Below, piece by piece: positions 1,340 through 52,107 of a DNA stretch of 64,000 nucleotides (position 1 is the first letter of the stretch; each line of letters opens with the position of its first letter). Under the pieces are notes generated by a model. The model made no database searches. It saw only the letters and a list, made by a program, of their open reading frames with translations, and was not told the origin of the DNA. Source of the stretch: a virus (lineage: Duplodnaviria > Heunggongvirae > Uroviricota > Caudoviricetes); the IMG/VR virus record IMGVR_UViG_3300017987_005500. One strand, written 5' to 3'. A program made the translations under genes and the position numbers.

Positions 1340-1675
1340 ATGACAGTTGAATTAATATTGCGTACAGATAGGGATCGCCTCCTTATAAGAGAAAGAAGGG
1401 TTAACGATATTGTTGATCCATATGAAGAAAGTGATGTGTATGGAGAAGAGATGACTGACTATACACATGAAATAGAAAAAAGATTAATTGAGCTTATTGC
1501 ATATACTCCAAAAGATCCTGAAGAACTCTCAAAAATAATTGAGAGTGCTAAACAAGAGTTTGCAAATCATTTGCTCTATGCAACGAAAAATGGAATCAGG
1601 CAAACACTCACACATCTTTGTATGCATGATGATATATCATTTAGAATAATTGATGAAAGTGACAGGAACCCATAA
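1340..1675 (+). CDS. Hypothetical protein (111 aa)
   Basis: Intact ORF; stop overlaps next start (ATGA coupling). Confidence 0.5.
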   Translation: MTVELILRTDRDRLLIRERRVNDIVDPYEESDVYGEEMTDYTHEIEKRLIELIAYTPKDPEELSKIIESAKQEFANHLLYATKNGIRQTLTHLCMHDDISFRIIDESDRNP

Positions 1676-8259: not shown

Positions 8260-9711
8260 TTAGGTAATTTGACAAATAGCAATACCATTTGATCTAACAA
8301 GAGTTGTTGCATATCTTGAAAGAATTGTCAAGCTTGGTGTTGCTCCTAATGGGTAAGGATGCAAGATTGCTGGTACATAAGGTGAGTAATAATAAACAGC
8401 TTTGAGTTCTTCAGTTGGGCGATATGTCATAAGCATAGTGCCTTGAGGAACGACTGCTGAAGTGAAAACTCTCCATTTTCCGCCAGCAACTGTGGCGCTT
8501 CGATATCCAAGATCGCCATCATTTACTGAAGTACCAGTGTAATTAAATCCTTGGAGATCTTCAAGAATAACAACGTCAAGAGGATTTGCAAGAATTGTAT
8601 TTGCTGCGTCCATATTTGTGTCAGTATAAACCTGAGCTGAAAGTGTATTGAGATCATAAACAATATTTTCATGCCAGTATTTAATACCCCAAGTGTATCC
8701 AGCAGGTGGATTTTTAGGGAATGCTCTAAGATGAGAAGAAGCATTTAATCTTGTATTTGCTGTGATCAATGCATTTACGATTTCTCTATCAATGTCAAGA
8801 GCGATTTGCTGACCAAGAATGTTAACGATTTCAGCTTGCATAGAAACATCAAATAGAGCTCTCATATCTTGCTCCATATTGATAGTCCAGTTAGCGCTGA
8901 TTTGTCTGTCTTTCGCATAAAGACGAACTTTGTCAACATAAAGTTGAACAGAAGGATTGATTTTATTTTCCTCAAGAGAACATGTAACTTCATATCTTAT
9001 TGAAGTGACAAGTCCTGTTGTACTGGAAACATCAACGGTTCCATTGAGATAGTCAACTTTTCCTGAAAGCACATCAGTGTTATTACCAATTGTAACACTT
9101 TGTGAGAAATGTCCTTCAACAGCTGGGATGATTGAAACTTCAACGAAGTTTGTACCATCTGAAGAAACTGCTGTAATTTGGAAATCTCTTTCAAGATGAG
9201 CTTGGTCTTTTGTCAAGGAAGCAACTGCAAGAATATCATAATTATTGCTTGGAACAGGCATTGCTGCAGCAATTGGAGTACCAATACTTGGTCCGCCAGA
9301 TATATCTTTTGAAGTTACAGGTGCGTCATATTGTTCAGATGAATTGGATGGTGAAAATTTAGCTTTGATGAAAGCTTTAATTGTTTCAGGTTTGTCCATT
9401 GGAGAAACTGTGATTGCTTCTTTGGCAACGAGTTTCGGATAGAACACTCTAAGAATAGGCATTGTTAGAGTTTCATATGGATTTATTTGAAACATTGAAT
9501 TTTCAAGAAGATTTATTCTGGTATTTTCGGCAAGTACCTTAAAATCAGCTTGATCTTTTTTGCTTTCAATTGACTCAGCGAGTCCAGTTACATAAGCGTC
9601 AAATGCTGTGTCATTAATTAAGACCTCTTTAATATTACCAGGTTTTGAAGGGTCAACCCCGGAAATCTTTTTCGTAGTCTTATAGACCTCTAGCAGAACT
9701 TCTTTTTCCAT
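8260..9711 (-). CDS. Major capsid protein candidate (483 aa)
   Basis: Large ORF at the end of a portal-protease-scaffold-capsid ordered block, followed by a strong terminator, with a GGAGG RBS. Assignment is by position and size only. Confidence 0.4.
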   Translation of the reverse strand: MEKEVLLEVYKTTKKISGVDPSKPGNIKEVLINDTAFDAYVTGLAESIESKKDQADFKVLAENTRINLLENSMFQINPYETLTMPILRVFYPKLVAKEAITVSPMDKPETIKAFIKAKFSPSNSSEQYDAPVTSKDISGGPSIGTPIAAAMPVPSNNYDILAVASLTKDQAHLERDFQITAVSSDGTNFVEVSIIPAVEGHFSQSVTIGNNTDVLSGKVDYLNGTVDVSSTTGLVTSIRYEVTCSLEENKINPSVQLYVDKVRLYAKDRQISANWTINMEQDMRALFDVSMQAEIVNILGQQIALDIDREIVNALITANTRLNASSHLRAFPKNPPAGYTWGIKYWHENIVYDLNTLSAQVYTDTNMDAANTILANPLDVVILEDLQGFNYTGTSVNDGDLGYRSATVAGGKWRVFTSAVVPQGTMLMTYRPTEELKAVYYYSPYVPAILHPYPLGATPSLTILSRYATTLVRSNGIAICQIT

Positions 9712-11199: not shown

Positions 11200-12198
11200 T
11201 TAACATACTTTATAAGCTAATTGACCTGTTGAACATTCGTCTTTGTGACCTTTTTTATAATGACATGTTTCACAACAAGCAATTCCAAAGTCAGGATCAA
11301 GTGAAAAAAATGGTTCTAATTTTTTTGGTCTTGAATGATGGGCATGATTTGCTTTTTCTCCACAATATTCACATTTGTAGTTTGCTCTTTCTAAAACTTC
11401 AGTTCTCCATATCATATATTCTTCACTTGTATAATATTCTTCTTTGATAATTCCTGCTCTTATTTGATCTTCTTTAATAAGTTGAGTTATAGTTTTTCCA
11501 AATAATGGACATTCTTCTTTACACTTATTAGAACAATAAAAATAAGAACCTTCATTACCATTTATACTTTCCAATTGTCTTATTCTTTCAGTAATCTGAC
11601 TTCCAGTTGGAGTAAACCAACCATCTTTTTCTTTACTATTTATACAATTATGATTTTTACAATGTACCTGAATTTCTTTTTCTCCTGGTTTATCAGGATT
11701 ATATCTCATTTCCTCAATTTTACTAAATGTAGGATATTTATTTATATAATCTATAATTGTCATAAATCTATGATTTAATATACCAATTCTACTTTCACTT
11801 ATTTTACGATTATGTTCTTTTGTATTCTTTTTACCTTTCATAGATTTACTAAGTTTTTGTTTATGTGAATCAGATAAACTATGTAATTTTTTTCCTTTAT
11901 TCCAAGCTTTTTGCCCTTTACTAGATTCACTCATTTTTTTTAAAGACTCTTCTGAATAAATTCCAGTTTTTCCTCTATTCCATGACTTTTGTCCCTTATG
12001 AGATTCGCTCATTTTCTTTCTTGATTCTTCATTAACTTTTTTGCCTTTACGAGGATGTCCATTAACTTTAAATAAATCTTTCATTTTTCTTTTATTTGCT
12101 GGACATTTTCTATGATTATTTACACAACACCATTTTCCATTTTTAAACTGATGAACAGCTTCTTGTCCACATCCATATTCACAATTCATATTATTCAC
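11200..12198 (-). CDS. HNH homing endonuclease with NUMOD-like repeats
   Basis: C-terminal 'CEYCGEKANHAHHSRPKK' HNH box. Repeated 'SESHKGQKSWNRGKTG / SESSKGQKAWNKGKK' motifs, N-terminal Cys cluster. Inserted within the head gene block. Confidence 0.7.
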   Translation of the reverse strand: MNNMNCEYGCGQEAVHQFKNGKWCCVNNHRKCPANKRKMKDLFKVNGHPRKGKKVNEESRKKMSESHKGQKSWNRGKTGIYSEESLKKMSESSKGQKAWNKGKKLHSLSDSHKQKLSKSMKGKKNTKEHNRKISESRIGILNHRFMTIIDYINKYPTFSKIEEMRYNPDKPGEKEIQVHCKNHNCINSKEKDGWFTPTGSQITERIRQLESINGNEGSYFYCSNKCKEECPLFGKTITQLIKEDQIRAGIIKEEYYTSEEYMIWRTEVLERANYKCEYCGEKANHAHHSRPKKLEPFFSLDPDFGIACCETCHYKKGHKDECSTGQLAYKVC

Positions 12199-17133: not shown

Positions 17134-18651
17134 TTAAAATGTCAGCTGATTAAATGCAAATGTAACATTGCTCTTATCACCTTTACCATTTTGAACTTTA
17201 TCACTTTTATTCTCATTTTTTAATCTGTGTCCTCTAATAAATTTGAAGTGTTCAAAATTGACATGAAATTCAACAGATATATTTGACTTACCTGATCTAT
17301 TTTTAGCAACTTTAAGTAATACAATTTTTTCATTATATTGATCTTTAACCAATAAAGCAACAAAGTCTGCATGCTCAACTTTCTTAATTGATTCACCCAT
17401 CTGATCTAAGTTTAATTGATTTGCCTGCTCTGTCCTATAAGCACTCCTACTTAATTGAGTCAATGTTATTACAGGAATATTATATTCAACTGCTAATGCT
17501 TTAAGTCCTAATGTAATATCTCCCAATTCAATTCTGTATAAGTCATATTTAAGATCCGTCTTCATTAAATCCAAATAATCGACGTATAAACCCCTTATAG
17601 AGTCTTTTCCATACTCTAATATAACATCATCGAGAACCATCATTAAATCGACGCAACTTATAGATTTAGGAGGGAAATACTTCATTATAATAGTTGAATT
17701 ATTTTTATCCAACTTATCAAGTAATCTTTTCTTTATATCAATCCCTTGTCCAATTTCAGCAAGAACTTCTCTATTTGTCTTTTCAAATATGTCTTGATAA
17801 GTCCTTAAAAATGATTCCTCAATGGTATTCTCCATTGTGATATAAAGATATACATCTTTAACTTTTTCAGTTCCTTCATCCTGGTTTTGATTAATTGGAG
17901 CTGCCATAAAAGATTTATCAATGGTCGCTGCATTATCAATAAAATTATTTAAAATAGTGGATTTTCCCGATCCCGACCCTCCCCCAAAAACATAAAGTCG
18001 AGAAGGTTCAAATCCACCATGAAGGATTTCATTATCAAATACTGGATACCCAGTTGGAGTTGCATTTACTCTTTCATATTTTTTAATGATTTGATCTTTA
18101 ACATGATCAAAATCATCTTTTACTAAATCAAGTGATGAAGTTGCCTCCACCATTGCAACTCTTTGTTCTTCCATTAAATTGGAATATAAAACTTTTACAA
18201 CATTATCGAAGTCCAATACAACATCATCAATTGAATCAAAGTTTCCATTCTTTACAGTCTCTAATAATTCTTCAACATTATCAACATTGGAAAATAAATT
18301 ATTCAATTTCTTTCTTAATCTTATCTGCCTAATGTTATCTTCCATTGTCTTTTCATTAGGTTCTTCAGATATCTTAGCTAATACAAACTCTGCAATGTTG
18401 TCGAATTTATTAGATACCAAGATGCTATCAATTACATTATCAGTCTCTCTGCCATCTATTTTCATCTCACAAATCTTTTTAAGACAATCAACCTTAGTTT
18501 GAACTGTTACAGGAATCTCTATAGATTTTCTATCTTCAGAAAACTTTACAATTTCAACAATATCCCTGAATAAAGTCTTGTCCTTACGTACCTTAGAATT
18601 GTTGCATAGAATTACAGTGAAACATGAATTGATAAACCCTTCAGTTATCAT
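17134..18651 (-). CDS. SF4 replicative helicase (DnaB / T7 gp4-like)
   Basis: Walker A 'GGGSGSGKST' (cf. T7 gp4 GSGMGKST); 'VDYLDLMK' (DnaB H2-like); 'ITLTQLSRS' (H3-like SQLxR). Confidence 0.6.
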   Translation of the reverse strand: MITEGFINSCFTVILCNNSKVRKDKTLFRDIVEIVKFSEDRKSIEIPVTVQTKVDCLKKICEMKIDGRETDNVIDSILVSNKFDNIAEFVLAKISEEPNEKTMEDNIRQIRLRKKLNNLFSNVDNVEELLETVKNGNFDSIDDVVLDFDNVVKVLYSNLMEEQRVAMVEATSSLDLVKDDFDHVKDQIIKKYERVNATPTGYPVFDNEILHGGFEPSRLYVFGGGSGSGKSTILNNFIDNAATIDKSFMAAPINQNQDEGTEKVKDVYLYITMENTIEESFLRTYQDIFEKTNREVLAEIGQGIDIKKRLLDKLDKNNSTIIMKYFPPKSISCVDLMMVLDDVILEYGKDSIRGLYVDYLDLMKTDLKYDLYRIELGDITLGLKALAVEYNIPVITLTQLSRSAYRTEQANQLNLDQMGESIKKVEHADFVALLVKDQYNEKIVLLKVAKNRSGKSNISVEFHVNFEHFKFIRGHRLKNENKSDKVQNGKGDKSNVTFAFNQLTF

Positions 18652-19255
18652 CTAATTTCTTCACTCCCATTTTTATAAGTTCCATTTGAAGCTTATTCGC
18701 TATTATTTTATCCATGTCCTTTAATATTTGTTCTTTAAATTTATCCTTAATACCCTCAATATATTTAGGATCTATACTAACTTCATGCTGTCCACCTAAA
18801 TCTTTAATTACAATTCCTTCTCCATTTGACACAACAGGAATTGGCATTACTGACGTATGTCCTGATGTTGCTACATTTGCTATACTATGATAATGAGTTA
18901 CGCCGGCATAACCACTTCCACCCGCTCCATAACCTCCATGAGCAATTCCACCCCCACCTCCCCCACCACCTCCAGCAAAAGCTTGAGCAATATTTGATGT
19001 TATATCTTCTTCATCGGATTTTTCTTTTCCAACTATTTTTTCAATCCAATTTAGTTTACCTTCTCCATTGCATTTTTTACATGTACTAATATTATCAGTC
19101 CCATGTATTTTTCCTGACCCATTACATTTGTCACATAATTCTTCACATGAGTCTTCATCTAATTTTGGTCTCTTAGTGAATTTTCTTATCCTGTCTGTCA
19201 TATTAGCTAATTTTTCTGCATTTATAGCTATAGAATGAGCTGTTGTTTTTGCCAT
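18641..19255 (-). CDS. Zinc-ribbon paralog family member 1 (Gly-rich C-terminal domain)
   Basis: 'CDKCNGSGK...CKKCNGEGKLNWIEKIVGK' followed by 'GGGGGGGGGIAHGGYGAGGSGYAG' and a unique C-terminus. Confidence 0.6.
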   Translation of the reverse strand: MAKTTAHSIAINAEKLANMTDRIRKFTKRPKLDEDSCEELCDKCNGSGKIHGTDNISTCKKCNGEGKLNWIEKIVGKEKSDEEDITSNIAQAFAGGGGGGGGGIAHGGYGAGGSGYAGVTHYHSIANVATSGHTSVMPIPVVSNGEGIVIKDLGGQHEVSIDPKYIEGIKDKFKEQILKDMDKIIANKLQMELIKMGVKKLDDN

Positions 19256-19256
19256 A

Positions 19257-19559
19257 TCATTTACCTTTAATAATATTAAACATATCTTTTAAGTCTACAG
19301 CAACTTCTTTACCATCACATTTAACATAACCGGGAGGTAGTCCAACAAGTGATGAAGTCATTTTTTGTGCTACTTCAAAAAATTCATATATGTCAGTTTT
19401 AGGTATTTTTTTACCTACTACATTTTCAACCCAGTCAACTTTTTTATGACCATGACATTTTGGACAAATAACTTTAATAACATTTTCATCGTCATCTTTA
19501 CCTGGAGGTAACCATCCTTCTCCATTGCATTTTGAGCATGATATTAATTTATCATTCAT
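19257..19559 (-). CDS. Zinc-ribbon paralog family member 2
   Basis: 'CSKCNGEGW...CPKCHGHKKVDWVENVVGKK'. Probable start 'MNDKLIS' (ORF-track start 19622 overlaps member 3). Confidence 0.55.
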   Translation of the reverse strand: MNDKLISCSKCNGEGWLPPGKDDDENVIKVICPKCHGHKKVDWVENVVGKKIPKTDIYEFFEVAQKMTSSLVGLPPGYVKCDGKEVAVDLKDMFNIIKGK

Positions 19560-19882
19560 TATAATAATACCCATCCATGTTTTGTAAATGTATAAGTGTT
19601 CCCATTTGTAGAGTCTTCCCATAATGATCCAAGAGATGCTGAAGTTGGAGGGTTATTTGATAATATATGAATAGCTAAACCATCATCTTTACCTACTACA
19701 TTTTCAACCCAATCAACCTTTCCTGTCCCTAAACATTTATCACATATCTCTACACTTGGGATTGAAGTTCCATCAAATGAACTAAACTCCATTTCTCCTG
19801 TTACTAACAAACGAGTTCCTTCACAACGAGAACATATCATTTCACCCTCTTTAAGGACGATAGGTGGCATATTATTCGACAT
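19559..19882 (-). CDS. Zinc-ribbon paralog family member 3
   Basis: 'CSRCEGTRL...CDKCLGTGKVDWVENVVGKDD'. Confidence 0.55.
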   Translation of the reverse strand: MSNNMPPIVLKEGEMICSRCEGTRLLVTGEMEFSSFDGTSIPSVEICDKCLGTGKVDWVENVVGKDDGLAIHILSNNPPTSASLGSLWEDSTNGNTYTFTKHGWVLL

Positions 19883-20150
19883 AATCTAATATAAAGTTCC
19901 CATTAAATATTGCATTTTGAAATTCATTTGAAGTATAAAATGTATTATCAACTTTAAAATATGTCTTATGCATAGATTTAAAGTTGATATTCATATCAGC
20001 GATAAAAATATCATCAGAAGATTTATTTAATACGCTCATCGTTTTTGAAGATTGTTTACCTACTATATTTTCAACCCAATCGACTTCTATAGTTCCTAAA
20101 CATTTAGGGCATAATTCACTATCAATTCCATTACATTTTGAACAAATCAT
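19872..20150 (-). CDS. Zinc-ribbon paralog family member 4
   Basis: 'MICSKCNGIDSELCPKCLGTIEVDWVENIVGKQ'. Confidence 0.55.
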   Translation of the reverse strand: MICSKCNGIDSELCPKCLGTIEVDWVENIVGKQSSKTMSVLNKSSDDIFIADMNINFKSMHKTYFKVDNTFYTSNEFQNAIFNGNFILDYVE

Positions 20151-20437
20151 TTTATAAATTTAACTCCATCTTTATCAATACAATATGAAATTTCAATAAA
20201 ATCAACTGGTTCATTAAGTGTTATTACAGTATCAAATGAGTTATGAGATTTACCTGTTGCATTTTCAATCCAATCAACTTTACCAGTACCTAAACATTTT
20301 GGACATAAATTTTTAATTGGAATTTTCCTATCATCGTCAGGAGTCTTTCCAACTTCTTCCTCAATTAATCGAGAACCTTTACACAATGAACATAATATCT
20401 CACCCTTATCTTCATCTATAAAAATATCATTCATCAT
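20147..20437 (-). CDS. Zinc-ribbon paralog family member 5
   Basis: 'CSLCKGSRL...CPKCLGTGKVDWIENATGK'. Confidence 0.55.
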   Translation of the reverse strand: MMNDIFIDEDKGEILCSLCKGSRLIEEEVGKTPDDDRKIPIKNLCPKCLGTGKVDWIENATGKSHNSFDTVITLNEPVDFIEISYCIDKDGVKFIK

Positions 20438-20443
20438 GTATCC

Positions 20444-20851
20444 TTATAATGTTAGAATTATTGATATTGCTTCATGAGTTTTAAATATTTTAAATTTTAT
20501 ATTTATTTTATTAGAATATGGAGGGTCATTATCAATTATAAAATCTGTGATGATGAATCTTTGACTTATTCTACTTAAAAAACTATCAATTAAATTTATA
20601 ATCTTGGATATTGTTACACTATCCATAAAATGTCCTATAAAAGGTTCTATAATCTTATTTAAATTCCTATCAATAAAACTAACTGTACTTTTAATATTTA
20701 GGTTATTAATGTCATTATAACTGATAGGATATGACTTACCTACTACATTTTCAATCCAATCAAGAGTTCCTTCTCCATGACATTTTTCACAAATATTATT
20801 ATGAAAAAATCCTTCTCCATCACATTTAGAACATAGTATATTGTTTTTCAC
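20444..20851 (-). CDS. Zinc-ribbon paralog family member 6
   Basis: 'CSKCDGEGFFHNNICEKCHGEGTLDWIENVVGK'. Confidence 0.55.
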   Translation of the reverse strand: MKNNILCSKCDGEGFFHNNICEKCHGEGTLDWIENVVGKSYPISYNDINNLNIKSTVSFIDRNLNKIIEPFIGHFMDSVTISKIINLIDSFLSRISQRFIITDFIIDNDPPYSNKINIKFKIFKTHEAISIILTL

Positions 20852-21113
20852 TACTTTCCACCCTTAACCAACGTTTACCATCATACATATTTATTGTATT
20901 ATTAGTTTCATTAAAATAAGCATCTCCAAAGTGAGGATTGTCGGGAGGTCGTAAAGATGGTTCTAACCAATTTAATCCTCCAGGAAAATCTGGAATAGAG
21001 GGACGGGGAGCACCAACTATATTATCAATCCAGTCGAGCTCCCCCTTTCCATGACATTTAGGACAAATATGTTCATCAAATATACCTGCCCCATCACATT
21101 TAGAACATTTCAT
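20826..21113 (-). CDS. Zinc-ribbon paralog family member 7
   Basis: 'MKCSKCDGAGIFDEHICPKCHGKGELDWIDNIVGAP'. Confidence 0.55.
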   Translation of the reverse strand: MKCSKCDGAGIFDEHICPKCHGKGELDWIDNIVGAPRPSIPDFPGGLNWLEPSLRPPDNPHFGDAYFNETNNTINMYDGKRWLRVESSEKQYTMF

Positions 21114-21433
21114 TTTTTGAATGATGTAATATAAGTGAATACTCTTGTTTCATCTTTTAAAGGAAATAGTATAGCTAAATGTAGATGAAGTTTATTATCG
21201 CCAAGCAAATGATCAAAACTATATTCAATTAAAAATTTAGATTTTAATTTACATAAAAAAAGTTTAATATCTCCTTTAACTTTAGCTACATCATCTTCAG
21301 TGATAGTAGTTTCTAAATCTTTAAGATACTCTTGTATATTGATATTGATAAATTGCACAAGATTATCTTTATTTTTTTGAATTAATAGTCTTGTAAATAC
21401 ATCAACTTTTTCTTCTAGGTCAATTGCTGGCAT
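21110..21433 (-). CDS. Hypothetical protein (107 aa)
   Basis: ORF, ATGA-coupled to paralog array. Confidence 0.45.
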   Translation of the reverse strand: MPAIDLEEKVDVFTRLLIQKNKDNLVQFININIQEYLKDLETTITEDDVAKVKGDIKLFLCKLKSKFLIEYSFDHLLGDNKLHLHLAILFPLKDETRVFTYITSFKK

Positions 21434-21443
21434 AAACTCCCCC

Positions 21444-22820
21444 TTAAAAAGTTAGAATTTTCTTTTCTTCAAGGTCAGTAAATTCGTCCTTACTTAATAC
21501 CTTATCAACAATATACTTACAAAAGGTTTCATCTAATGATGTAAGCATATCTAATGATTTCACAATGCTAACTGATTTAGCTCTTTGTTTTCTGCTTATT
21601 TTTCCACCATTTAAATTTCGAGTTATCATTTCAACTTCTCTGATAAACTCCTCAATAAGACCATCTTCATAAAGTGGATAAATACTTTCAGCTTTTTCTC
21701 TTGCCATTGTTTGAATATCAGCAAATTGATTAAGCATATGCAACATTGAATAAACTCTCATTTCATCATAGAAAGTTCCTGTGTCAGGATTATAAATATC
21801 AATGTTTCTAATATCTTTAAAACCATATCTTTCAGATAATTCATATAACGCTCTTTTATATCTGTCAATTCTCTTTTCACCATTAAGGAATCTCAAGTTA
21901 AGTTTCTTAGTTCTTAAATCAAGTTTTCTAATAACTCCATCATCAAGGACTGAAATATATCTTCCAACCATAAGTCCTTTAAAGAGTCCAGATGAGTCAT
22001 ATGATATTTCAACTTCAATTGCATGTTTCTTTAATAAATGAAGTCTAAATAATTCATAGAATAAAATATCTCTGAAATTAGCTCCACCTAATATATGAAA
22101 ATGTAAAGTATCTCGCCCATGTTTTAATGCTTCATTAATAAGAGGTATCATTGGAATGACATATATGATACAAGGTATTTGTGTATCACTTGCCATATTA
22201 GCAACAATTCCTCCAGTTCCATGATGTTTAAATTCTTTAAACATATCATTTTCTCTCATAATCTTTGTATAAATATCCCAAAGTTTAGGAGTTCTAAAAT
22301 GATGAATATAAATCATCTTATCTTTAACATCTTGAGGAAGATTTGCTGCCATTGAATATGTTTCTAAGTTCTTATCATATATCTGATCAAAACTTTCAAA
22401 TAATTCACAGCCAGGTCCAGGTGGTAAGTCTAATACAAAAGCTCTATCATATACATCTTTCTCTTGTACTAAAAATTGATGATACAAATCTATCAGTGCT
22501 TGTGTCTCATCTTTTTTAAGTTTACCAATTGATGCTTGAAACCCTCCTGAGTCGACTATAAATTCAGAGTCATTGAATAGTCCAGTATCTCTGCATTGTC
22601 TATAAAGCTTTGCTTCATTCTCAATATGTTTGTCGTATTTTTTCTTACCTGAGAAATTTTGTCCAAATGAATGTAAAAACATATTACAAGATTCTGCAAA
22701 GAAATTAGAAATTTGATCTCTTGTAAAATGATCGTCGTACCTATTGGATTTGTTCAATAAAAAATTGTCGAGAATTGTTGCTAACGTTTCGAAACCTGCA
22801 CATACATAATTACTTTTCAT
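21444..22820 (-). CDS. tRNA-guanine transglycosylase family protein (DpdA-like DNA 7-deazaguanine transglycosylase candidate)
   Basis: 'FIVDSGGFQASIG' matches the TGT/DpdA catalytic DSGGFQ motif. 458 aa; no obvious TGT C-terminal CxCxxC-H zinc motif. Neighbour of queE. Confidence 0.55.
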   Translation of the reverse strand: MKSNYVCAGFETLATILDNFLLNKSNRYDDHFTRDQISNFFAESCNMFLHSFGQNFSGKKKYDKHIENEAKLYRQCRDTGLFNDSEFIVDSGGFQASIGKLKKDETQALIDLYHQFLVQEKDVYDRAFVLDLPPGPGCELFESFDQIYDKNLETYSMAANLPQDVKDKMIYIHHFRTPKLWDIYTKIMRENDMFKEFKHHGTGGIVANMASDTQIPCIIYVIPMIPLINEALKHGRDTLHFHILGGANFRDILFYELFRLHLLKKHAIEVEISYDSSGLFKGLMVGRYISVLDDGVIRKLDLRTKKLNLRFLNGEKRIDRYKRALYELSERYGFKDIRNIDIYNPDTGTFYDEMRVYSMLHMLNQFADIQTMAREKAESIYPLYEDGLIEEFIREVEMITRNLNGGKISRKQRAKSVSIVKSLDMLTSLDETFCKYIVDKVLSKDEFTDLEEKKILTF

Positions 22821-25835: not shown

Positions 25836-26123
25836 ATGGAAGCAGAACATGTTATGAATTATATACTTAAAAATCTATCCGGAGAAGAATCGATGAAACA
25901 GACAAAGGATGAAAGGAAAAAATTGACAAACCTTTCATTGAGATTAATTAAGGAGTCTGATATATGTGATTCTATGTTGGAATATTATAAAGAAGAGATA
26001 AGAAATCTTAAATGTTTCATTATAAAGTTATATTTGCATCCATCTCATGATAGTACATATGAAGAAATTGTTGATGAAGTTTTAAATATATTATTAAAAT
26101 TAAGAGAAAAATATAAATCTTAA
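25836..26123 (+). CDS. Hypothetical protein (95 aa)
   Basis: Plus-strand ORF with 'attaggagg' RBS; followed by terminator. Confidence 0.45.
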   Translation: MEAEHVMNYILKNLSGEESMKQTKDERKKLTNLSLRLIKESDICDSMLEYYKEEIRNLKCFIIKLYLHPSHDSTYEEIVDEVLNILLKLREKYKS

Positions 26124-26159
26124 AAGTTTTCCTTCTTTGAGAGGAGAGATAACTTTAAA

Positions 26160-26198
26160 AAAATAAGGGCGCCACCATAAAAGCACCCTTATTTTTTG
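26160..26198. terminator. Bidirectional terminator between convergent genes
   Basis: Hairpin 'ataagggcgcc...gcacccttat' with T6 downstream on plus and T7-like run on minus. Confidence 0.55.
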
Positions 26199-26202
26199 TC
26201 AT

Positions 26203-26409
26203 TTATTCATTTATTGCAATTGAAGAGTTAGCATGCATTACACACTCTTGTAGTCTTCTTATTGCAATTGTCTTTTCAGCGCTGTCAGGACATGTATCGT
26301 CAATATGTTTTGCAAAATTTTTTGCATTTTCTCTTATTGACTCATATCTTTCAGTCTGATCTCCTTTTGGAGGATGATAAGTGAATAAATTATCAATGTC
26401 TTTAATCAT
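26203..26409 (-). CDS. Hypothetical protein (68 aa)
   Basis: Small ORF; RBS 'aaaggtgaaat'. Confidence 0.35.
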   Translation of the reverse strand: MIKDIDNLFTYHPPKGDQTERYESIRENAKNFAKHIDDTCPDSAEKTIAIRRLQECVMHANSSIAINE

Positions 26410-26423
26410 ATTTCACCTTTAGA

Positions 26424-26675
26424 CTATTTCACGTTTGCTGGCAAATGACATTTTACGCAATAAAGAACAGGAATATGAATAATCTGATCTTGACCTGTTT
26501 TATTAGCAGGATCTAAAGCAGAAGATCTAACCATTTGAATTCCTTCTTTAAAAACACCTGTTCCACATTTACATAAAACAGGTTTTGCATTTTTAACCAT
26601 TTCCATCATAAGTTCTTGATTCATACCTGGTGGCATTGGCGGTTGTTGGCCTGGTTGCATTTCACTATTCTCCAA
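26424..26675 (-). CDS. Small zinc-ribbon protein (83 aa)
   Basis: 'CKCGTG...CVKCH' Cys pairs; TTG/ATG start ambiguity. Confidence 0.4.
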   Translation of the reverse strand: MENSEMQPGQQPPMPPGMNQELMMEMVKNAKPVLCKCGTGVFKEGIQMVRSSALDPANKTGQDQIIHIPVLYCVKCHLPANVK

Positions 26676-26684
26676 TTTAAAGGG

Positions 26685-26948
26685 TTATTTAGATTTAATT
26701 TGTGGAACTGGTTTTCTTAAAATGGGTACGCCATCTTGTAAAATAGATCCACATTTTTTACATTGAACAGCGTCAATTGGGACATTCTTAGGACCTGTCT
26801 TTGGTGTATCAAGTCGTCTAAGCACAATTGCATATTCCCAAAGCATTCCACCACATATACATTTAACGATTGGTAAATCTTCCAGATTGAAAGGACCATC
26901 TGGATTTTTATTTTCAGTTTCTTTACTCGCTTCCTTTTTCTCCGTCAT
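26685..26948 (-). CDS. Small zinc-ribbon protein (87 aa)
   Basis: 'CICGG...CKKCGS' Cys pairs. Confidence 0.4.
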   Translation of the reverse strand: MTEKKEASKETENKNPDGPFNLEDLPIVKCICGGMLWEYAIVLRRLDTPKTGPKNVPIDAVQCKKCGSILQDGVPILRKPVPQIKSK

Positions 26949-27228
26949 TTTCTACCTCCCTAAGGATTGCATAAACTTCAGTATTACCAAGGACTTTCAT
27001 TAATTTTTCATCAACTATAATGTCCATACCAAAACTTGCATGAAACATTACAATGTCGCCCTCTTGAATTGCTTTATCACATTCAACACCTACTGAAAGA
27101 ACTTTTCCATATCGTTGAGGTTCCTGAGGTTGAGCTGTTTCAGGAATGATCAATCCACCAGGTGTTACATTACTTGTTTCCATTAATTCGACAACTAACT
27201 TATCTGCAACTGCAATAATTTGTTTCAT
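26923..27228 (-). CDS. groES: GroES-like co-chaperonin (cpn10)
   Basis: 'GGLIIPETAQPQEPQRYGKVLSVG...EGDIVMF' matches GroES 'sGIviPdtAkekpqeGeVvAvG...vGDkVlf'; 101 aa. Confidence 0.65.
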   Translation of the reverse strand: MKQIIAVADKLVVELMETSNVTPGGLIIPETAQPQEPQRYGKVLSVGVECDKAIQEGDIVMFHASFGMDIIVDEKLMKVLGNTEVYAILREVENDGEKGSE

Positions 27229-27464
27229 CTTTCATTTTTCCTTTCTTGGTTGCTTCGTTTAATAGACTCAGACTTCTTTCGATTTTTTCTAACACTACTT
27301 TTTTCGTGAAATCTTCGTTGATGAACTTCTTTTATTATACCTGCTTTTGATACTGTCCTTTTAAATCTTCTAAGGAGACTATCAAAATGTTCTCCGGATC
27401 CTGATATAACTCCAATACCTTTTGAGTCAGATATCAGTCTTCCTTTTTTATTATATAAAGTCAT
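27225..27464 (-). CDS. rpsU: Ribosomal protein S21 homolog
   Basis: 'FDSLLRRFKRTVSKAGIIKEVHQRRFHEKSSVRKNRKK' aligns with bacterial S21 'vALRRFKRsceKaGvlaEvRrReFyEKPtteRKRak'; 79 aa, basic C-terminus. Confidence 0.65.
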   Translation of the reverse strand: MTLYNKKGRLISDSKGIGVISGSGEHFDSLLRRFKRTVSKAGIIKEVHQRRFHEKSSVRKNRKKSESIKRSNQERKNER

Positions 27465-28146
27465 AAATTAAATGTTCCCGTGAGCTTATATTCATTTTAT
27501 GTTTATCTGCTAAATCAAACACAATAGGAGCATTCTTTAATATCTCCTCTCTACTCTTTCCTTTTGGCATCAAATATGTAATTGAAGATAAACCTAATAA
27601 ATTTAAATGTAAAAGAAATTCCATCATAAATTCATTTTTTTCTTCAGCTACAACTTTAATAAAAACTAAATCTTGATCTTCATCAAGTATATATTTAAAT
27701 TCATCTACTCTGGTTTTTTCAGCATCTAAATCAGATAGATTAAATATTTTTGGAGAATAAATAATTTTTACATTTTTATCATTAGCTCGTAAATCTCCGA
27801 GAAATGTTGTTAAGTTACATCCATTCGTTTCAATGTTTGCTACCTTATAATCCAATGTATTCAACATATTAAGAGTTGACTTATAATTTTCACTATATAA
27901 AGGTTCTCCACCTGTGATCATAAGTCCACAATTCTCTTTATTAATTGTGTCTTGAATATCTTTGATTTTATATTCAGCTGCTGATGATACTCTCATTTTA
28001 ATTAGAGTATCACACCATTGACATGGATTCCCATTAACAACTCTATCACAATCTTTAAATCTCAATAATAACATTCTTCTGCCACTATCCGCGCATTCTC
28101 CCTGCCACGTTACTATGTTTTCGATAAGCTTCACAGTTTCACTCAT
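27451..28146 (-). CDS. queE: 7-carboxy-7-deazaguanine synthase QueE (radical SAM)
   Basis: 'VTWQGECADSGRRMLLLRFKDCDRVVNGNPCQWCDT' parallels QueE 'TIQGEG..vGq.tvFvRtaGCd..CsWCDs'. Also 'ITGGEPL' and 'ETNG' motifs. Confidence 0.65.
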   Translation of the reverse strand: MSETVKLIENIVTWQGECADSGRRMLLLRFKDCDRVVNGNPCQWCDTLIKMRVSSAAEYKIKDIQDTINKENCGLMITGGEPLYSENYKSTLNMLNTLDYKVANIETNGCNLTTFLGDLRANDKNVKIIYSPKIFNLSDLDAEKTRVDEFKYILDEDQDLVFIKVVAEEKNEFMMEFLLHLNLLGLSSITYLMPKGKSREEILKNAPIVFDLADKHKMNISSREHLIYDFI

Positions 28147-31470: not shown

Positions 31471-31718
31471 TATTTTTAATATCCTTTTTATGTTTAAAGT
31501 AATACTGCTATATATATTTATTAGTGAAGAGATGAAGAGTTTGTTAATTTTGTTTTACAGTTAGTGTTTTAGTGTTAATCTGGGCAAGGGAAGGAGAATT
31601 ATTATGAATCACTTTTATTAACTTTTTTAAATCTTAAGGAGAGATGACATGTGTACAGTTACTATGGAAATTGGTAAGAACTTAGACTCGACTGTAAATG
31701 GGAGGAGGTGCTTTAATG

Positions 31719-32318
31719 GATCAAACTGAGTGTCAAGAAGCGTGTAGAGTTTTGAATATTGATGATATAGACCCGCATAATTTAGACGTAAATCATGCAA
31801 ATGACATAATTCAAGTATTTTTTGATATACTTGAAGAAGTAGAAGACCCCGACGAAAAATTTAACATATCATTAATAAAAGCAAAAAATCAACTCTTATA
31901 TGAAATTATCAAAAATAAAAGCAATTGTAATAATGTTTTTGAGTTTGATCTTGACTTCAGTAATAGCATGAATAAATGCAAATACTGTGGTGGTGGAGGA
32001 ATTAAACCTGTTGTTGAGCAAGGCATTGTTAAAAACATGGATAAATGTCCTGATTGTTTGGGATCAGGAATTCAACATAAACCATGTAGAGAATGTCATG
32101 AAACAGGATGGATTGGTCCGAATCATTGTTCGATATGCAATGGTAGAAAGAGAATACCTTTCAGGAAAAACGCAAAGAAAAAATGTTCACGATGCGGCGG
32201 TAATAAATACATTGATCGAAAGGTAAGTACAGGAAGAATTCTTTCTCACATTACATGTACAGTATGTAAAGGTTATGGTGTGATTGGATGGGAAAAGGCA
32301 TGTTCACCAAAAACCTAA
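31719..32318 (+). CDS. DnaJ-type cysteine-rich (CxxCxGxG) zinc-finger protein
   Basis: 'CKYCGGGG...CPDCLGSG...CRECHETG...CSICNGRK...CSRCGGNK...CTVCKGYG' repeated CxxCxGxG units. Likely start ATG 31719 after GGAGG. Short upstream ORFs lie in the leader. Confidence 0.5.
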   Translation, partial: DQTECQEACRVLNIDDIDPHNLDVNHANDIIQVFFDILEEVEDPDEKFNISLIKAKNQLLYEIIKNKSNCNNVFEFDLDFSNSMNKCKYCGGGGIKPVVEQGIVKNMDKCPDCLGSGIQHKPCRECHETGWIGPNHCSICNGRKRIPFRKNAKKKCSRCGGNKYIDRKVSTGRILSHITCTVCKGYGVIGWEKACSPKT

Positions 32319-32925: not shown

Positions 32926-33714
32926 TTATAATGAAGTTTCAGTTGATGTTTGAATATGAGGTTTCATATTTTTTCTCCAAGTTCTTATATCAAAATTTTC
33001 TTTATTCAATCCTGGAGGAAATGCGCAGTCCATCTCATGTAACATTTGATGTGCTCTTTCAGTTGGTAAATGGCCAGATCTTACATTTCTTATTATTTCT
33101 ATCATTTTCCATACTAATGGATCATCTTGAATATCCTTGGATAGACTTTTATGTACATCAGATAATCGTTTAACTTCTTTCCAAATTCTTTTTTTCTCTT
33201 CCTTTTCACATTCCTTTGCAATAGAGATAAGACTATTTATTGATGTTGAAATACTTTTCATTTGAGCATGAAGTCTATTATGAGATCTTATTAAAACAAC
33301 ATTTTCAAATCTGTTATTAAAAGGATTTCCATCAATATGATGAAGATCAAGTCCATTCTCTCGACATCCTCTGAAAATAAAATCAAGTCCATGATGAAAA
33401 TTCCAAATCAATGTACCTATTGTTATAGTCAAAGTCTTATCATTTGCTCTATTACTTCTTGTGTTAAGAATAGGATGCATAAACTTTCGCTTATCTTTAA
33501 CCCTTATCACTGGGCAATATTTGACAGGATGCCATAATGAGCAATTAGGAGGAAGTTCTCCATACTCATGTGGGCATGTTGCGCAAATAGTTTCTCCAAA
33601 TGGAAGATAATAACCATATATTTCTCCAGTTATTCTTTCCACTCTTCTTGGGTTAAAATTGTCTTTTGTGTTGTTGTAGACGTCGTGTAATTGAGTCCAG
33701 TCTGGCATTTTCAC
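32926..33714 (-). CDS. HNH endonuclease (262 aa)
   Basis: 'LDLHHIDGNPFNNRFENVVLIRSHNRLH' HNH box; N-terminal Cys/His cluster 'CATCPHEYG...CSLWHPVKYCP'. Confidence 0.55.
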   Translation of the reverse strand: MKMPDWTQLHDVYNNTKDNFNPRRVERITGEIYGYYLPFGETICATCPHEYGELPPNCSLWHPVKYCPVIRVKDKRKFMHPILNTRSNRANDKTLTITIGTLIWNFHHGLDFIFRGCRENGLDLHHIDGNPFNNRFENVVLIRSHNRLHAQMKSISTSINSLISIAKECEKEEKKRIWKEVKRLSDVHKSLSKDIQDDPLVWKMIEIIRNVRSGHLPTERAHQMLHEMDCAFPPGLNKENFDIRTWRKNMKPHIQTSTETSL

Positions 33715-33761: not shown

Positions 33762-34103
33762 TTATCTGTAATATTTAATTATTACAACATCTCCTGATTT
33801 TATTAATGAATCTAAATCATTAGACGATAATATTTGAGAAGGATTTAATATCTCTGATATATGATATTCTATATTAGGTTCTAATTGAATTCCAATATCT
33901 TGTATCGTTATAGGATAATTTGTTTTATTTTTTGCAGTGAGATGTAAAATCTTTTCAGGAGCTTTACCTACAATATTTTCAACCCAATCAAGTTCCCCCG
34001 CTCCATTGCATTTTGAACACGCTTGCTTTATAGGTTTTGTCGTGTCCCATCTTTCTTGAGGAATATATATCATTCCTTCTCCATCACATTTAGAGCATTT
34101 CAT
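33762..34103 (-). CDS. Zinc-ribbon paralog family member 8 (dispersed copy)
   Basis: 'MKCSKCDGEGMIY...CSKCNGAGELDWVENIVGKAP'. Same core as the 18.6-21.1 kb array, with a unique C-terminus. Confidence 0.55.
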   Translation of the reverse strand: MKCSKCDGEGMIYIPQERWDTTKPIKQACSKCNGAGELDWVENIVGKAPEKILHLTAKNKTNYPITIQDIGIQLEPNIEYHISEILNPSQILSSNDLDSLIKSGDVVIIKYYR

Positions 34104-51622: not shown

Positions 51623-52069
51623 TTAAAATGGGTCAATTGGCATGCAAACAATATCATCTATACAACCTGTCACTTTTAATTTATATTCAGTTTGTCTTTT
51701 ATACATCTTTGAAATAATTAAAGCATAACCTGCAGCTTCAAGAAAATTATTAAAAAGTCCAAACCAAAATGTTTTTCCAGTTCTTAAATCTCTTAATTCA
51801 CTTTGATAATGATCAGCATATCTTGTTGATACATTATGCTGTATATCAATCTTTCCACCTTCTGGATGGAGTTTAATGAAACTTCTTTCATAATTGATGT
51901 TGATAAACCATCTTTTGTATAAACCGCTTTTTGCAAATGTATTATTTAAAATAAATTGCTGTGCATCATCAACTGCTTTTCGTACTTCTTTCTCATGTAG
52001 CATAATTGTCTCCAAACTTCGTAATTCGTCATGGTACCCCAGGCAGGATTCGAACCTGCGCGCAAACAT
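51623..52069 (-). CDS. Hypothetical protein (148 aa)
   Basis: ORF; function not recognisable. Confidence 0.45.
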   Translation of the reverse strand: MFARRFESCLGYHDELRSLETIMLHEKEVRKAVDDAQQFILNNTFAKSGLYKRWFININYERSFIKLHPEGGKIDIQHNVSTRYADHYQSELRDLRTGKTFWFGLFNNFLEAAGYALIISKMYKRQTEYKLKVTGCIDDIVCMPIDPF

Positions 52070-52107
52070 TTAGAGTGTCCTGCTCTAAACCACTGAGCTA
52101 CTGGGGC
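52032..52107 (-). tRNA. Suppressor tRNA (anticodon CTA, reads UAG amber)
   Basis: Acceptor gccccag/ctggggt, D arm 'gctc-agtggttta-gagc', anticodon arm 'ggaca-ctctaaa-tgttt' (two G.U pairs), T arm 'gcagg-ttcgaat-cctgc', CCA encoded. Confidence 0.5.

Follow-up and report, generated by a model that had tools for sequence, protein, structure and literature searches.

Organization of the Locus

The window (the whole 64-kb stretch of DNA that was analyzed) comes from a giant, T4-like phage. Seven tightly coupled minus-strand genes, g1 to g7, run in it from 21113 to 18641, and an eighth copy, g8, lies apart on the same strand, from 34103 to 33762. Upstream of g1 are g0 (21110–21433, minus strand; 107 aa), which lacks the zinc module of the array genes, and a conserved 458-aa ORFan (21444–22820, minus strand) with no Pfam match on record and no PHROG family. 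Directly downstream of g7, and overlapping it by 11 nt, is the gene of a DnaB-type replicative helicase (17134–18651, minus strand; Pfam DnaB_C), which matches phage DnaB-like helicases in tblastn searches. The window also encodes a gp23-type major capsid protein (8260–9711, minus strand; Pfam Gp23, 4.2e-30). The sheath gene of this phage, which would encode the presumed partner of g2, is absent from the 64-kb window.

An earlier note on this DNA had described seven consecutive ATGA-coupled genes plus one dispersed copy. The genes and their positions stand, and all junctions are tight, but ATGA overlaps proper are found at two junctions only, g0/g1 and g3/g4. At the remaining array junctions there are a 26-nt overlap, a 6–9-nt gap, an 11-nt overlap, a 1-nt TAATG overlap, and a 1-nt gap. 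The array genes are so closely coupled to dnaB and the 458-aa gene that they seem to share a transcript with replication genes. We found no published description of this layout in the literature.

A Conserved Zinc-Knuckle Core

In all eight copies, a single pair of DnaJ-type zinc knuckles is accompanied by a (K)[LV]DW[IV]EN[IV]VGK box. When a profile of the ~45-aa core was compared with every six-frame segment of the window, exactly eight copies were recovered (E 4e-23 to 2e-18), while the next-best segment had an E-value of 0.18; the shared N-terminal module that had been proposed is thus real. The box had also been called invariant. It is conserved, yet only the columns C, C, G, C, K, C, G, W, and G are the same in every copy, and the second Gly is missing from several knuckles (g3, g4, g5). 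In the AlphaFold model of g8, the core has a pLDDT of 88–96, and the tail is of low confidence.

The earlier note could place the core in no named family from sequence alone, and it does fall into none: the Pfam models DnaJ_CXXCXGXG and Anti-TRAP match it below threshold, and its PHROG matches are families of unknown function. DnaJ and BSD2 rank high in the fold and Pfam comparisons, the fold matches being not significant. The DnaJ cysteine-rich domain (PF00684) and BSD2 have the CxxCxGxG knuckle motif in common with the window proteins, which differ in having two knuckles instead of four, no J domain, and sub-threshold scores. Anti-TRAP (PF15777), a 53-aa zinc-binding inhibitor of TRAP from Bacillus, is likewise tiny, with two CxxCxGxG-type knuckles and one zinc site, and is a stoichiometric protein-protein binder. 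However, the window copies score at best 21.9 bits against its cut-off of 32 bits, and Anti-TRAP, a bacterial regulator rather than part of a phage array, is without the DW[IV]EN[IV]VGK box and the appended modules.

The family is large and uncharacterized. An exhaustive core-profile search returned 3,910 cluster representatives at E ≤ 1e-3 (907 at E ≤ 1e-10), and a word-indexed search gave 109 relatives. In frequency, Anti-TRAP ranks second among the Pfam models that family members match (94 of 117 members, best E 4e-7). In five divergent T4-core phage lineages (L001, L009, L013, L014, and that of the window), arrays occupy one shared locus, where they flank a ~460-aa ORFan on both sides, directly upstream of DnaB; the 458-aa ORFan or its counterpart lies upstream of or within the array in all five. 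Each lineage has its own distinct set of tails, so the C-terminal turnover between related phages that had been anticipated does occur. Between strains, the tails are not hypervariable as had been suggested: four other samples have the array at 100% identity, and a diverged strain keeps every gene of the seven, with 14 synonymous changes and 10 non-synonymous ones. The strain comparison indicates purifying selection on the array, with pN/pS higher than in the neighboring genes.

Recurring Classes of C-Terminal Tails

Beyond the core, the tails in the window are 34–128 aa long, not 50–150 aa as first estimated. The description of a modular family proved apt: the zinc module at the N-terminus is conserved, and the C-terminal modules are exchangeable. 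The tails had been described as unrelated and hypervariable, one of them Gly-rich and another Pro-rich; a Gly-rich copy (g7) and a Pro-rich one (g1) are indeed present, but several tails are related to each other and fall into recurring, conserved classes, including a sheath C-terminal domain (g2), a capsid segment (g7), and a fiber-type motif (g1 and g5). Nor are they frame-shifted fragments of one gene, since each ORF is intact, purifying selection acts on them, and the tails match different proteins. Of 233 family members retrieved, 94 were assigned to six tail classes, and 75 of these 94 are sheath- or capsid-derived. The virion-fragment classes comprise the sheath C-terminal domain, the sheath N-terminal arm, the capsid N-arm, a capsid strand-plus-helix segment, and the tail-fiber motif; the sheath N-terminal arm and capsid N-arm classes occur in relatives only and not in the window copies.

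One sheath-derived tail is that of g2 (20444–20851, minus strand; 135 aa, GTG start), in which the core is followed by a tail-sheath C-terminal-domain module. This tail matches PHROG tail-sheath families (7.8e-4 and 0.07), and most of its tblastn matches listed are annotated sheath genes. The top PDB matches of the class profile that contains g2 are T4-type gp18 proteins (residues 547–643; E 3.9e-5 to 2e-3), and two class-mates exceed the 26.9-bit cut-off of Pfam Phage_sheath_1C (P0196, 32.6 bits; P0223, 29.3 bits). The g2 tail is modeled by AlphaFold with a pLDDT of 80–93, and the top Foldseek match of the model is the phi812 sheath (probability 1.00, E 0.019, rmsd 2.9 Å over 84 columns), with further matches to the pyocin, KP1, Sf14, and P1 sheaths. 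Fusions of this class stop at the last strand of the domain; they have no N-terminal arm, and most also have no C-terminal arm, so they would not extend a sheath polymer. The product of g0 resembles the same class (sheath-C class profile A6, E 2.5e-4; hhalign, E 0.0037) and matches no Pfam or PHROG family; tentatively, it is a paralogue of the sheath C-terminal domain that stands on its own. The complementary element is found in relatives. Of the 23 tblastn records of the sheath N-terminal arm class, nearly all lie within annotated tail-sheath genes (the single match checked is N-terminal in its protein), and the class profile matches the N-terminus of the Melnitz sheath (E 1e-4). In sheath proteins, it is the N-terminus, the C-terminus, and the C-terminal domain that form the "handshake" by which a sheath is held together (PMC10457771).

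The capsid-derived tails can be related to a protein encoded in the window itself. g7 (18641–19255, minus strand; 204 aa) consists of an N-terminal extension, the core, a Gly-rich linker, and a tail of the capsid strand-plus-helix class. The profile of this class, g7 included, matches residues ~281–324 of the window's capsid protein (E 6.4e-6), and direct BLAST of g7 points weakly to the same region (E 0.28). The capsid N-arm class profile matches the same capsid protein with an E-value of 1.7e-9. Among family members, Pfam Gp23 scores 34.0 bits at positions 148–202 and 26.4 bits at positions 3–34, both above its cut-off of 24.4 bits. The gp23-type protein of this phage is presumed to be the source or target of the capsid-derived tails. 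The position of g7, the last gene before DnaB, is taken in the other lineages by genes coding for 134 aa (L001), 135 aa (L009), 121 aa (L013), and 133 aa (L014). Capsid similarity was found in all three of those tested (L001, Pfam Gp23 2.8e-8; L009, precomputed Pfam Gp23 match; L013, class profile 3.8e-11), and the L014 protein was judged by eye only to be like the capsid class.

The tails of g1 and g5 have one motif in common. In g1 (20826–21113, minus strand; 95 aa; core profile E 4.6e-22), the core and a Pro-rich linker are followed by GLNW..P..P..GDaYfN...N..Y.YDG..W; g5 (19559–19882, minus strand; 107 aa; E 1.1e-22) carries the motif as PPTSASLGSLWEDSTNGNTYTFTKHGW. g5 aligns with class E, and its profile score of 2.8e-15 is not independent, since g5 is part of the alignment. 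The g1 tail matches phrog_8309 (5.8e-5), other large PHROGs of unknown function, and, weakly, two "tail fiber" PHROGs. In a tblastn search with the tail of a g1 class-mate, the matching genes, where annotated, were mostly tail fiber or minor tail genes. The motif probably derives from fiber proteins.

For the tails of g3, g4, g6, and g8, no origin was found in PHROG searches, nor for g8 in PDB and a large protein database. g3 (20147–20437, minus strand; 95–96 aa; E 7e-22) has a long insert between the knuckles and a 34-aa tail with no family match. g4 (19872–20150, minus strand; 92 aa; E 2e-18), which is identical to P0031, a protein encoded on a 308-kb contig, has a minimal core and a tail that is probably of class J. 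g8 (33762–34103, minus strand; 113 aa; E 4.4e-23) carries a class J tail (alignment A9), in common with P0110, P0111, P0176, and P0221, and this tail matches nothing beyond its own class in PDB, PHROGs, and the large protein database. The g4 and g8 tails are probably related, as suggested by an hhalign E-value of 0.0084 and a class J profile match to g4 at 0.03. The tail of g6 (19257–19559, minus strand; 100 aa; E 4e-23), with the pattern ..EFF..Q.M....G.P..Y.KCDG, is common to P0007 and partly to P0003, and its single weak PHROG match is a tail fiber family (E 0.07). The g6 ORF extends to 19622, and the database protein P0001, to which g6 is identical, begins MNDKL.

Proposed Role and Alternatives

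Taken together, the data point, with a probability of about 0.85, to a protein in three parts, in which a substantial fraction of the C-terminal modules copy virion polymerization or attachment segments. The parts would be a DnaJ/Anti-TRAP-type knuckle pair, a short conserved helix (DW[IV]EN[IV]VGK), and an exchangeable C-terminal module; the copied segments would be the sheath N-terminal donor arm, the sheath C-terminal acceptor domain, the capsid N-arm, the capsid strand-plus-helix, and the tail-fiber motif. Since four of the eight window tails have no identified origin, the rule may not be general.

As to mechanism, we tentatively favor, at somewhat less than even odds, the view that the proteins imitate virion interfaces and thereby cap subunits that are still unassembled. 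Each tail would bind the usual partner of the segment it copies, that is, the complementary interface on unassembled cognate virion subunits. A knuckle fused to the sheath arm would fill the platform with which a sheath subunit accepts its neighbor's arm, while one fused to the sheath C-terminal domain would take donor arms but could not relay the polymer; the capsid and fiber versions would act in the same mode. Such stoichiometric caps would prevent polymerization at the wrong time or place until the true neighbors displace them. The zinc module may serve as a minimal folded handle or as a common docking or oligomerization element. Because the identity of the tails to real sheath and capsid proteins is only about 20–30%, compatibility of the interfaces is not assured.

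There are parallels to such a scheme. Pilus chaperones (PapD/FimC) lend a strand that completes the subunit fold and blocks premature polymerization until the next subunit displaces it. The likeness of the proposed caps to this donor-strand complementation is in concept only, with no sequence or fold relationship. The DnaJ-type zinc-finger proteins closest in sequence or fold (DnaJ, BSD2, Anti-TRAP) are chaperone-like or stoichiometric protein binders. BSD2, which acts in Rubisco assembly, is also small and keeps hold of a partly assembled large oligomer until its last partner arrives, a kind of role that is proposed here, but it binds the client through its own zinc domain, whereas the specificity of the window proteins would sit in the client-derived tail. 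If the proteins were essential chaperones, each for its own client, one copy of each and a stable repertoire would be expected; the lineage-variable repertoire and raised pN/pS fit accessory or arms-race genes better. Of the roles proposed by the earlier reading, host range finds no support, and the data speak neither for nor against host takeover; the third, anti-defense, is a serious rival.

The main alternative, which we consider less likely, is that the proteins are anti-defense decoys: tails imitating the most conserved, and hence most "sensable," capsid, sheath, and fiber segments would occupy host abortive-infection sensors or cofactors before late proteins appear, and so block activation. 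The position among replication genes suggests expression ahead of the late proteins, a gene with an Acb2/Tad1 hairpin is found some 5 kb from the array within the same gene block, and multi-copy arrays, lineage-specific repertoires, and relaxed constraint are typical of counter-defense loci. The capsid N-arm class corresponds to a conserved N-terminal gp23 segment (Pfam Gp23 positions 3–38), which may, by its residue numbers, coincide with the Gol peptide. The 29-residue Gol region of T4 gp23, described as the most conserved part of that protein, binds EF-Tu and triggers the Lit protease (PMC3014915). Relatives of the window proteins end in a copy of the N-terminal gp23 segment, which would then be the one involved in Lit/EF-Tu exclusion, but none of the eight window copies has a tail of this class, and a trigger-bearing peptide would be expected to activate the sensor rather than block it. 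In the family, the arm of the sheath handshake and its complement, the platform, both occur, and assembly contacts are a simpler account of this than sensors; we know of no defense system reported to sense a sheath terminus. No defense-related family was among the Pfam and PHROG matches of these proteins.

Fragments of self-assembling proteins are classic dominant negatives, and the tails could instead poison the sheath, capsid, and fiber assembly of co-infecting relatives, the producer being insensitive. Their strong divergence from real structural proteins and the variable repertoire would suit such interference, which we nevertheless regard as improbable: the class profiles score well against the capsid protein of the producer itself (E 1.7e-9 and 6.4e-6), so that self-immunity is not evident.

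Slightly less probable still is that these are minor virion components, whose tails fill free handshake or lattice sites, leaving the zinc module on the particle. The gp25/TssE/Afp9 initiators and the tail terminators are also small, present one half of the handshake (platform or strand), and start or stop a polymer. An initiator or terminator supplies an arm-only or platform-only module (PMC10457771); the g2 class is platform-only, the class in relatives arm-only. The sheath-domain class is close in size to gp25/Afp9-type initiators, and its profile touches Afp9 weakly (E 0.24). In contrast to initiators and terminators, the window genes are zinc-fused, multi-copy, and located in the replication block, apart from the structural genes; g0 and g2 match no GPW_gp25 or terminator family; and the same scaffold also bears capsid and fiber fragments, there being no obvious lattice site for the capsid N-arm and helix fragments.

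Nucleic-acid-binding regulators with a Q-like ribbon and incidental tails, or functionless recombination scars, are the least probable of all: the weak core matches to "anti-termination protein Q-like" PHROGs and to the zinc modules of lambda Q and UvrA (Foldseek) are confined to the knuckles and not significant, while the tail classes recur in hundreds of divergent proteins and in five lineages, and the ORFs are intact, identical across samples, and under purifying selection.

Results

The open reading frames of the seven zinc-knuckle genes (g1–g7, minus strand, 21113 to 18641) and of the dispersed eighth copy, g8 (33762-34103), were confirmed at the positions and on the minus strand as first reported, with corrections to the details. 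In an alignment of the eight proteins, the shared core has first a C-x-x-C-x-G knuckle, which an insert varying from 5 to 30 residues separates from a C-x-K-C-x-G-x-G knuckle; a (K)[LV]DW[IV]EN[IV]VGK box comes last. When a profile of this ~45-aa core was run against the window translated in all six frames, exactly these eight copies matched, at E values between 4e-23 and 2e-18; the best of the remaining segments scored E 0.18, and the array is therefore not a chance pattern. Each copy does contain two CxxCxGxG knuckles, but several knuckles lack the second Gly. The box, which had been called invariant, is conserved and varies among the eight copies, and the tails (the exchangeable C-terminal modules that follow the core) measure 34-128 aa instead of 50-150 aa. 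The genes are tightly packed, as claimed, but the ATGA overlap described for all junctions is found at two only; g7 and the start of dnaB overlap by 11 nt.

None of the cores reached the Pfam gathering threshold of DnaJ_CXXCXGXG (PF00684, 32.7 bits): g8 scored best (25.4), the others were at 15-25, and g4 did not match. Against Anti-TRAP (PF15777, threshold 32 bits), the best window score was 21.9, for g6. PHROG matches of the core were weak, and fell in families of unknown function or in the zinc part of Q-like proteins. An AlphaFold2 model of g8, built from a 112-sequence alignment, had a pLDDT of 88-96 over residues 1-50. In it, both knuckles are seen, the insert folds into a beta hairpin, and DWVENI lies in a short helix. 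A Foldseek comparison of the model with the PDB gave no significant match, the UvrA zinc module, BSD2, DnaJ, and lambda Q being nearest. Based on the sub-threshold Pfam scores, the weak PHROG matches, and the Foldseek result, the core lies outside every curated family; it is a generic one-zinc knuckle pair of the DnaJ/Anti-TRAP type, followed by a family-specific box. The DnaJ cysteine-rich domain has four CXXCXGXG repeats with two zinc centres and is part of a J-domain co-chaperone, whereas the window copies have two repeats, and neither a J domain nor a DnaJ C-terminal domain was found in them with Pfam. The core is thus similar to Anti-TRAP and to DnaJ/BSD2 zinc fingers, yet it scores below their thresholds and lacks their defining architecture. 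Anti-TRAP binds tryptophan-activated TRAP, an activity that is unlikely for the window proteins, given the phage context.

A word-indexed search with the core profile retrieved 109 small proteins of 53-100 aa, while 1.84 billion cluster representatives, searched exhaustively with HMMER, yielded 3,910 matches at E≤1e-3, 907 of them at E≤1e-10. Among the best 150 HMMER matches, lengths range from 62 to 250 aa, and two cores occur in some of the proteins. Two-core members with a tail class between the cores, found among database proteins P0110-P0114, P0118, P0123, and P0128, are fused neighbours. Other members (e.g., P0118 and P0123) start with a preceding core translated in the wrong frame ('MEMERLIGLKKQQEK'). 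Tandem arrays are therefore common in the family, and gene fusions occasional. Database records of family members bear no informative names, the existing ones being automatic labels set off by the zinc motif, and no description of the family was found in the literature. The family is also present in a different type of large phage, one with a multisubunit RNA polymerase (contig L010).

Reading of the retrieved sequences showed that the tails sort into recurring classes. Six profiled classes account for 94 of the 233 retrieved proteins, and 75 of these 94 are sheath- or capsid-derived. The earlier note had described a modular family with unrelated C-termini. The modules stand, but "unrelated" does not: in several cases, the variable modules are virion-protein fragments. 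The tails are not frame-shifted fragments of one gene, as the ORFs are intact, are the same across samples, and have their matches in different proteins. A BLAST search of the six-frame window with each of the tails had no significant result; the capsid protein was found later, by the class profiles only.

Two database members, P0196 and P0223, scored 32.6 and 29.3 bits, respectively, against Pfam Phage_sheath_1C (PF17482; cut-off 26.9), the former spanning positions 2-103 of the 104-position model; g2 alone had no Pfam match. The five best PDB matches of a six-tail profile that included g2 were four T4-type gp18 proteins and one other sheath (E 3.9e-5 to 0.0097), and the gp18 alignments (best E 3.9e-5) cover residues 547-643 of 656-659. 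The g2 tail alone matched two tail-sheath families in PHROG (7.8e-4 and 0.07), and most of the matches listed in a tblastn search against all GenBank phages were in annotated sheath genes. An AlphaFold2 model of this tail (pLDDT 80-93) consists of two helices followed by three strands. Its top Foldseek match is the phi812 tail sheath (probability 1.00, E 0.019, 84 columns, rmsd 2.9 Å), with the pyocin, KP1, Sf14, and P1 sheaths lower in the list. The sequence and model comparisons identify the g2 tail as a homologue of the sheath C-terminal domain, but g2 is not a sheath protein: it is 135 aa long, matches gp18 residues 547-643 only, and does not show the N-terminal arm, outer domains, and C-terminal arm that make up a complete sheath. 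Alignments of the sheath-C class end at the last strand of the domain, and the C-terminal arm is therefore absent from most sheath-C fusions; the zinc module stands where the N-terminal arm would be. The class profile matched Afp9 weakly (E 0.24). The product of g0, a 107-aa gene without the zinc module upstream of g1 (21110-21433, minus strand), matched the sheath-C class with a profile E of 2.5e-4 and an hhalign E of 0.0037, and is tentatively regarded as a further copy of the sheath C-terminal domain.

The sheath N-terminal arm class ('[YI].PGVY..E[VI]D[LY]S') has 22 members, none in the window. A tblastn search with a 34-aa tail of this class gave 23 records, each weak (E 0.3-6), nearly all in annotated tail-sheath genes. 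The match in phage Melnitz lies at the extreme N-terminus of the protein (MAFQVSPGVLVKEIDLT), which the class profile matched at E 1e-4. The link to the sheath arm is based on this N-terminus and on the concordance of the tblastn annotations; the class profile had no sheath match among PDB sequences, because the motif is too short.

The gp23-type capsid protein of the window (8260-9711, Pfam 4.2e-30) was matched by profiles of two classes. The capsid N-arm class ('IPLVR..YPKLIAK.LV.VQPM'; 8 members, none in the window) scored 26.4 bits against positions 3-34 of Pfam Gp23 (PF07068; cut-off 24.4), and its profile matched residues ~79-114 of the window's own capsid protein at E 1.7e-9. Judged by residue numbers, this segment may be the Gol region. 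The strand-plus-helix class ('R.LK..W..E....L.G.....A..hA..ID.EIl') has 40 members. A 134-aa protein of contig L001, the positional orthologue of g7, scored 34 bits against positions 148-202 of Gp23, and P0191 scored 22.6 bits (cut-off 24.4 for both). There was no direct Pfam match for g7 alone (the Gp23 segment corresponds to profile positions ~146-203). It is placed in the class because of its position, its Gly-rich linker, and the alignment; the linkers of its class-mates are Ser/Gly-rich. The class profile, which includes g7, matched residues ~281-324 of the window's capsid protein at E 6.4e-6, and the BLAST match of g7 to this protein, though weak (E 0.28), falls exactly within these residues. 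In the PDB, the profile matched T4 gp24 at no better than E ~0.5.

The motif of a fibre-type class with 15 database members is also present in g1 and g5. Besides phrog_8309 (5.8e-5), the g1 protein matched stretches close to the N-termini of further large PHROGs of unknown function and, weakly, two "tail fiber" PHROGs. When the tail of a class-mate was used in tblastn, most of the annotated targets, in unrelated phages, were genes labelled "tail fiber" or "minor tail"; a search of the PDB with the class returned nothing. We hold the assignment of the g1/g5 class as fibre-type, which comes from these similarities, with moderate confidence. A further class, J, contains g8, probably g4, and perhaps g3, and its searches against the PDB, PHROGs, and a 5.8-billion-protein database (g8, g4) returned its own members only. 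For the g6 class and two further classes of relatives, no source protein was found in searches that included tblastn and PHROGs. The latter two classes, 'GTSG..IPTQKAVK.YV' and 'NPD..VDLYY.GN..L.TT', which looked fibre-like by eye, were dropped as such, having no tblastn or PHROG support.

In coding-strand order, the array is preceded by genes for a UDG-PolB fusion, an S21 homologue, Cpn10, an Acb2/Tad1-hairpin protein, ThyA, and an RlaP-type nucleotidyltransferase. A 458-aa ORFan (21444-22820, minus strand), g0, the seven-gene array, and DnaB follow, and then five small genes, the T4-type portal, the prohead protease (Peptidase_S77), and the gp23-type capsid protein. This neighbourhood identifies a large phage with T4-type core genes, with the array in the replication block. 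No GenBank phage is close to the region at the DNA level, and DNA and protein searches of GenBank phages with the region and g8 found nothing; a 308-kb contig encodes proteins identical to g4, g2, and g8.

Four further lineages (L001/L002/L003, L009, L013, and L014) share the layout, in the order PolB(UDG), Cpn10, Thy, array part 1, ~460-aa ORFan, array part 2, DnaB, and Portal_T4. Their DnaB and ~460-aa proteins are diverged but clear homologues of those of the window. Part 1 of the L013 array contains capsid N-arm, sheath arm, and sheath C-domain tails, and part 2 contains capsid strand and capsid helix tails. In L001 and L009, part 1 consists of sheath arm, capsid N-arm, and two unassigned tails, and part 2 of one Pro-rich and one capsid strand-plus-helix tail, while in L014 part 1 contains a sheath arm and part 2 contains two sheath C-domains. 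The last gene before DnaB was shown to be capsid-derived in L001, L009, and L013, and g7 occupies the equal position in the window; the corresponding L014 gene was likened to the capsid class by eye only. The 458-aa ORFan is kept in all five lineages, upstream of or inside the arrays, and this tight linkage suggests a functional connection to them. It has no Pfam match on record and no PHROG match; a first guess that it is DpdA/TGT-like was dropped for want of support from either.

Four other samples carry the array with 100% identity. In a diverged strain (L011/L012), all seven genes recur, and 14 synonymous and 10 non-synonymous differences were counted over them in total. In this comparison, crude pN/pS was 0-0.48 per array gene, against 0 for DnaB and 0.02 for the 458-aa gene, values from which purifying, though relaxed, selection on the array genes is apparent. 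Hypervariability, as the earlier note had it, is not seen between strains, since the four samples agree and the 10 non-synonymous changes of the diverged strain are scattered, with gene content equal. The array is unlike a diversity-generating system; its diversity is between paralogues and between lineages.

Discussion

Our analysis shows a zinc-knuckle handle fused to copies of virion-protein segments. In a bolder reading, to which we give a probability of roughly three in ten, the arrays are a previously unrecognised, widespread phage strategy: a self-mimic cassette in which a minimal zinc handle would show contact or signature segments copied from the phage's own capsid, sheath, and fibre proteins, either to neutralise host immune sensors of those conserved segments (as multivalent decoys, Gol-like peptides among them) or for reversible assembly capping, and whose repertoire would be shuffled between lineages by module exchange.

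The sheath N-terminus, C-terminus, and C-terminal-domain platform form a "handshake" that links subunits within and between rings (PMC10457771). The family offers arm-only and platform-only modules, which could each engage a sheath subunit, yet not extend the polymer. The tails would then bind the complementary interface on unassembled subunits, capping them, and the capsid and fibre versions may act in the same way. Pilus chaperones, with their donor-strand complementation, and BSD2 in Rubisco assembly would be parallels to such capping. Tight coupling of the array to the 458-aa gene and dnaB points to co-transcription with replication genes; promoter and terminator scans, including the T4 late-promoter motif, were uninformative. 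A simple chaperone role is opposed by the different repertoires of different lineages, by the relaxed constraint on the array genes, and by the half of the window tails that have no matched source.

The decoy reading, in which the tails would imitate conserved structural segments that host sensors recognise, draws on two suggestive features, the possibly Gol-like capsid N-arm class and the Acb2/Tad1-type gene near the array. The Gol region of gp23 binds EF-Tu and triggers Lit, and has been called the most conserved gp23 region (review, PMC3014915). Dominant-negative interference with co-infecting related phages is a rival explanation. The proteins could also be minor virion components that serve as initiator- or terminator-like caps; g2 differs from gp25-type initiators in that neither it nor g0 has a GPW_gp25 (gp25 baseplate wedge) match in Pfam or PHROG. 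That they are generic zinc-ribbon regulators or non-functional debris is unlikely, because the tail classes recur and the genes are under selection.

In the literature, no described system was found in which a small conserved zinc module shows fragments of several virion proteins in a conserved multi-gene array, and on present evidence the architecture is new. Should the tails of the self-mimic cassette bind their parent proteins, or sensors that detect these, they would define a new class of phage proteins, a modular scaffold showing virion-protein fragments. The family reaches thousands of metagenomic sequences, with one locus kept across a group of large T4-core phages. Testable ideas would follow on how large myoviruses stop premature sheath and capsid polymerisation and on phage escape from immune systems that sense structural proteins. 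The modules would also be small natural inhibitors acting on the assembly interfaces of sheath and capsid, and could be used as tools. Were the mechanism wrong, the homology would still allow several classes within a large family of "hypothetical" small phage proteins to be annotated on a rational basis.

Other Features of the Genome

A 206-aa protein (31698-32318, plus strand), encoded divergently from the UDG-PolB gene, has several CxxCxGxG-type knuckles in a row and is a second, distinct DnaJ-like zinc-finger protein. Its counterparts are at 3051-3728 in L001, 436-1110 in L009, 699-1454 in L013, and 1-459 in L014 (all minus strand), so that position and orientation are kept in all five lineages. 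The genes for the S21 homologue (79 aa), Cpn10/GroES (101 aa), and the Acb2/Tad1-hairpin protein (68 aa) are located at ~26100-27500 (2687-3948 in L004 coordinates), between PolB and ThyA, a few kb upstream of the array; the Acb2/Tad1-hairpin family comprises anti-CBASS/anti-Thoeris sponges.

Directly downstream of g8, a 262-aa protein (32926-33714, minus strand) contains, by eye, an HNH-like 'HHIDGNPFNNRFENV' motif, and a mobile endonuclease adjoining g8 might account for the relocation of this copy. An HNH/homing-endonuclease-like gene of 332 aa (11200-12198, minus strand) is inserted between the portal and prohead protease genes.

The window is AT-rich (GC about 31%), and its 16 tRNA genes lie between 36374 and 60068, without exception on the minus strand. 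A nucleotidyltransferase of the CCA-adding enzyme/poly(A) polymerase type with an HD domain (1675-3036, plus strand) fits this large tRNA set. The tRNA with a CTA anticodon (52032-52107, minus strand), called "Pyl", is amber-reading, and could point to amber suppression or to stop-codon reassignment in part of the genome.
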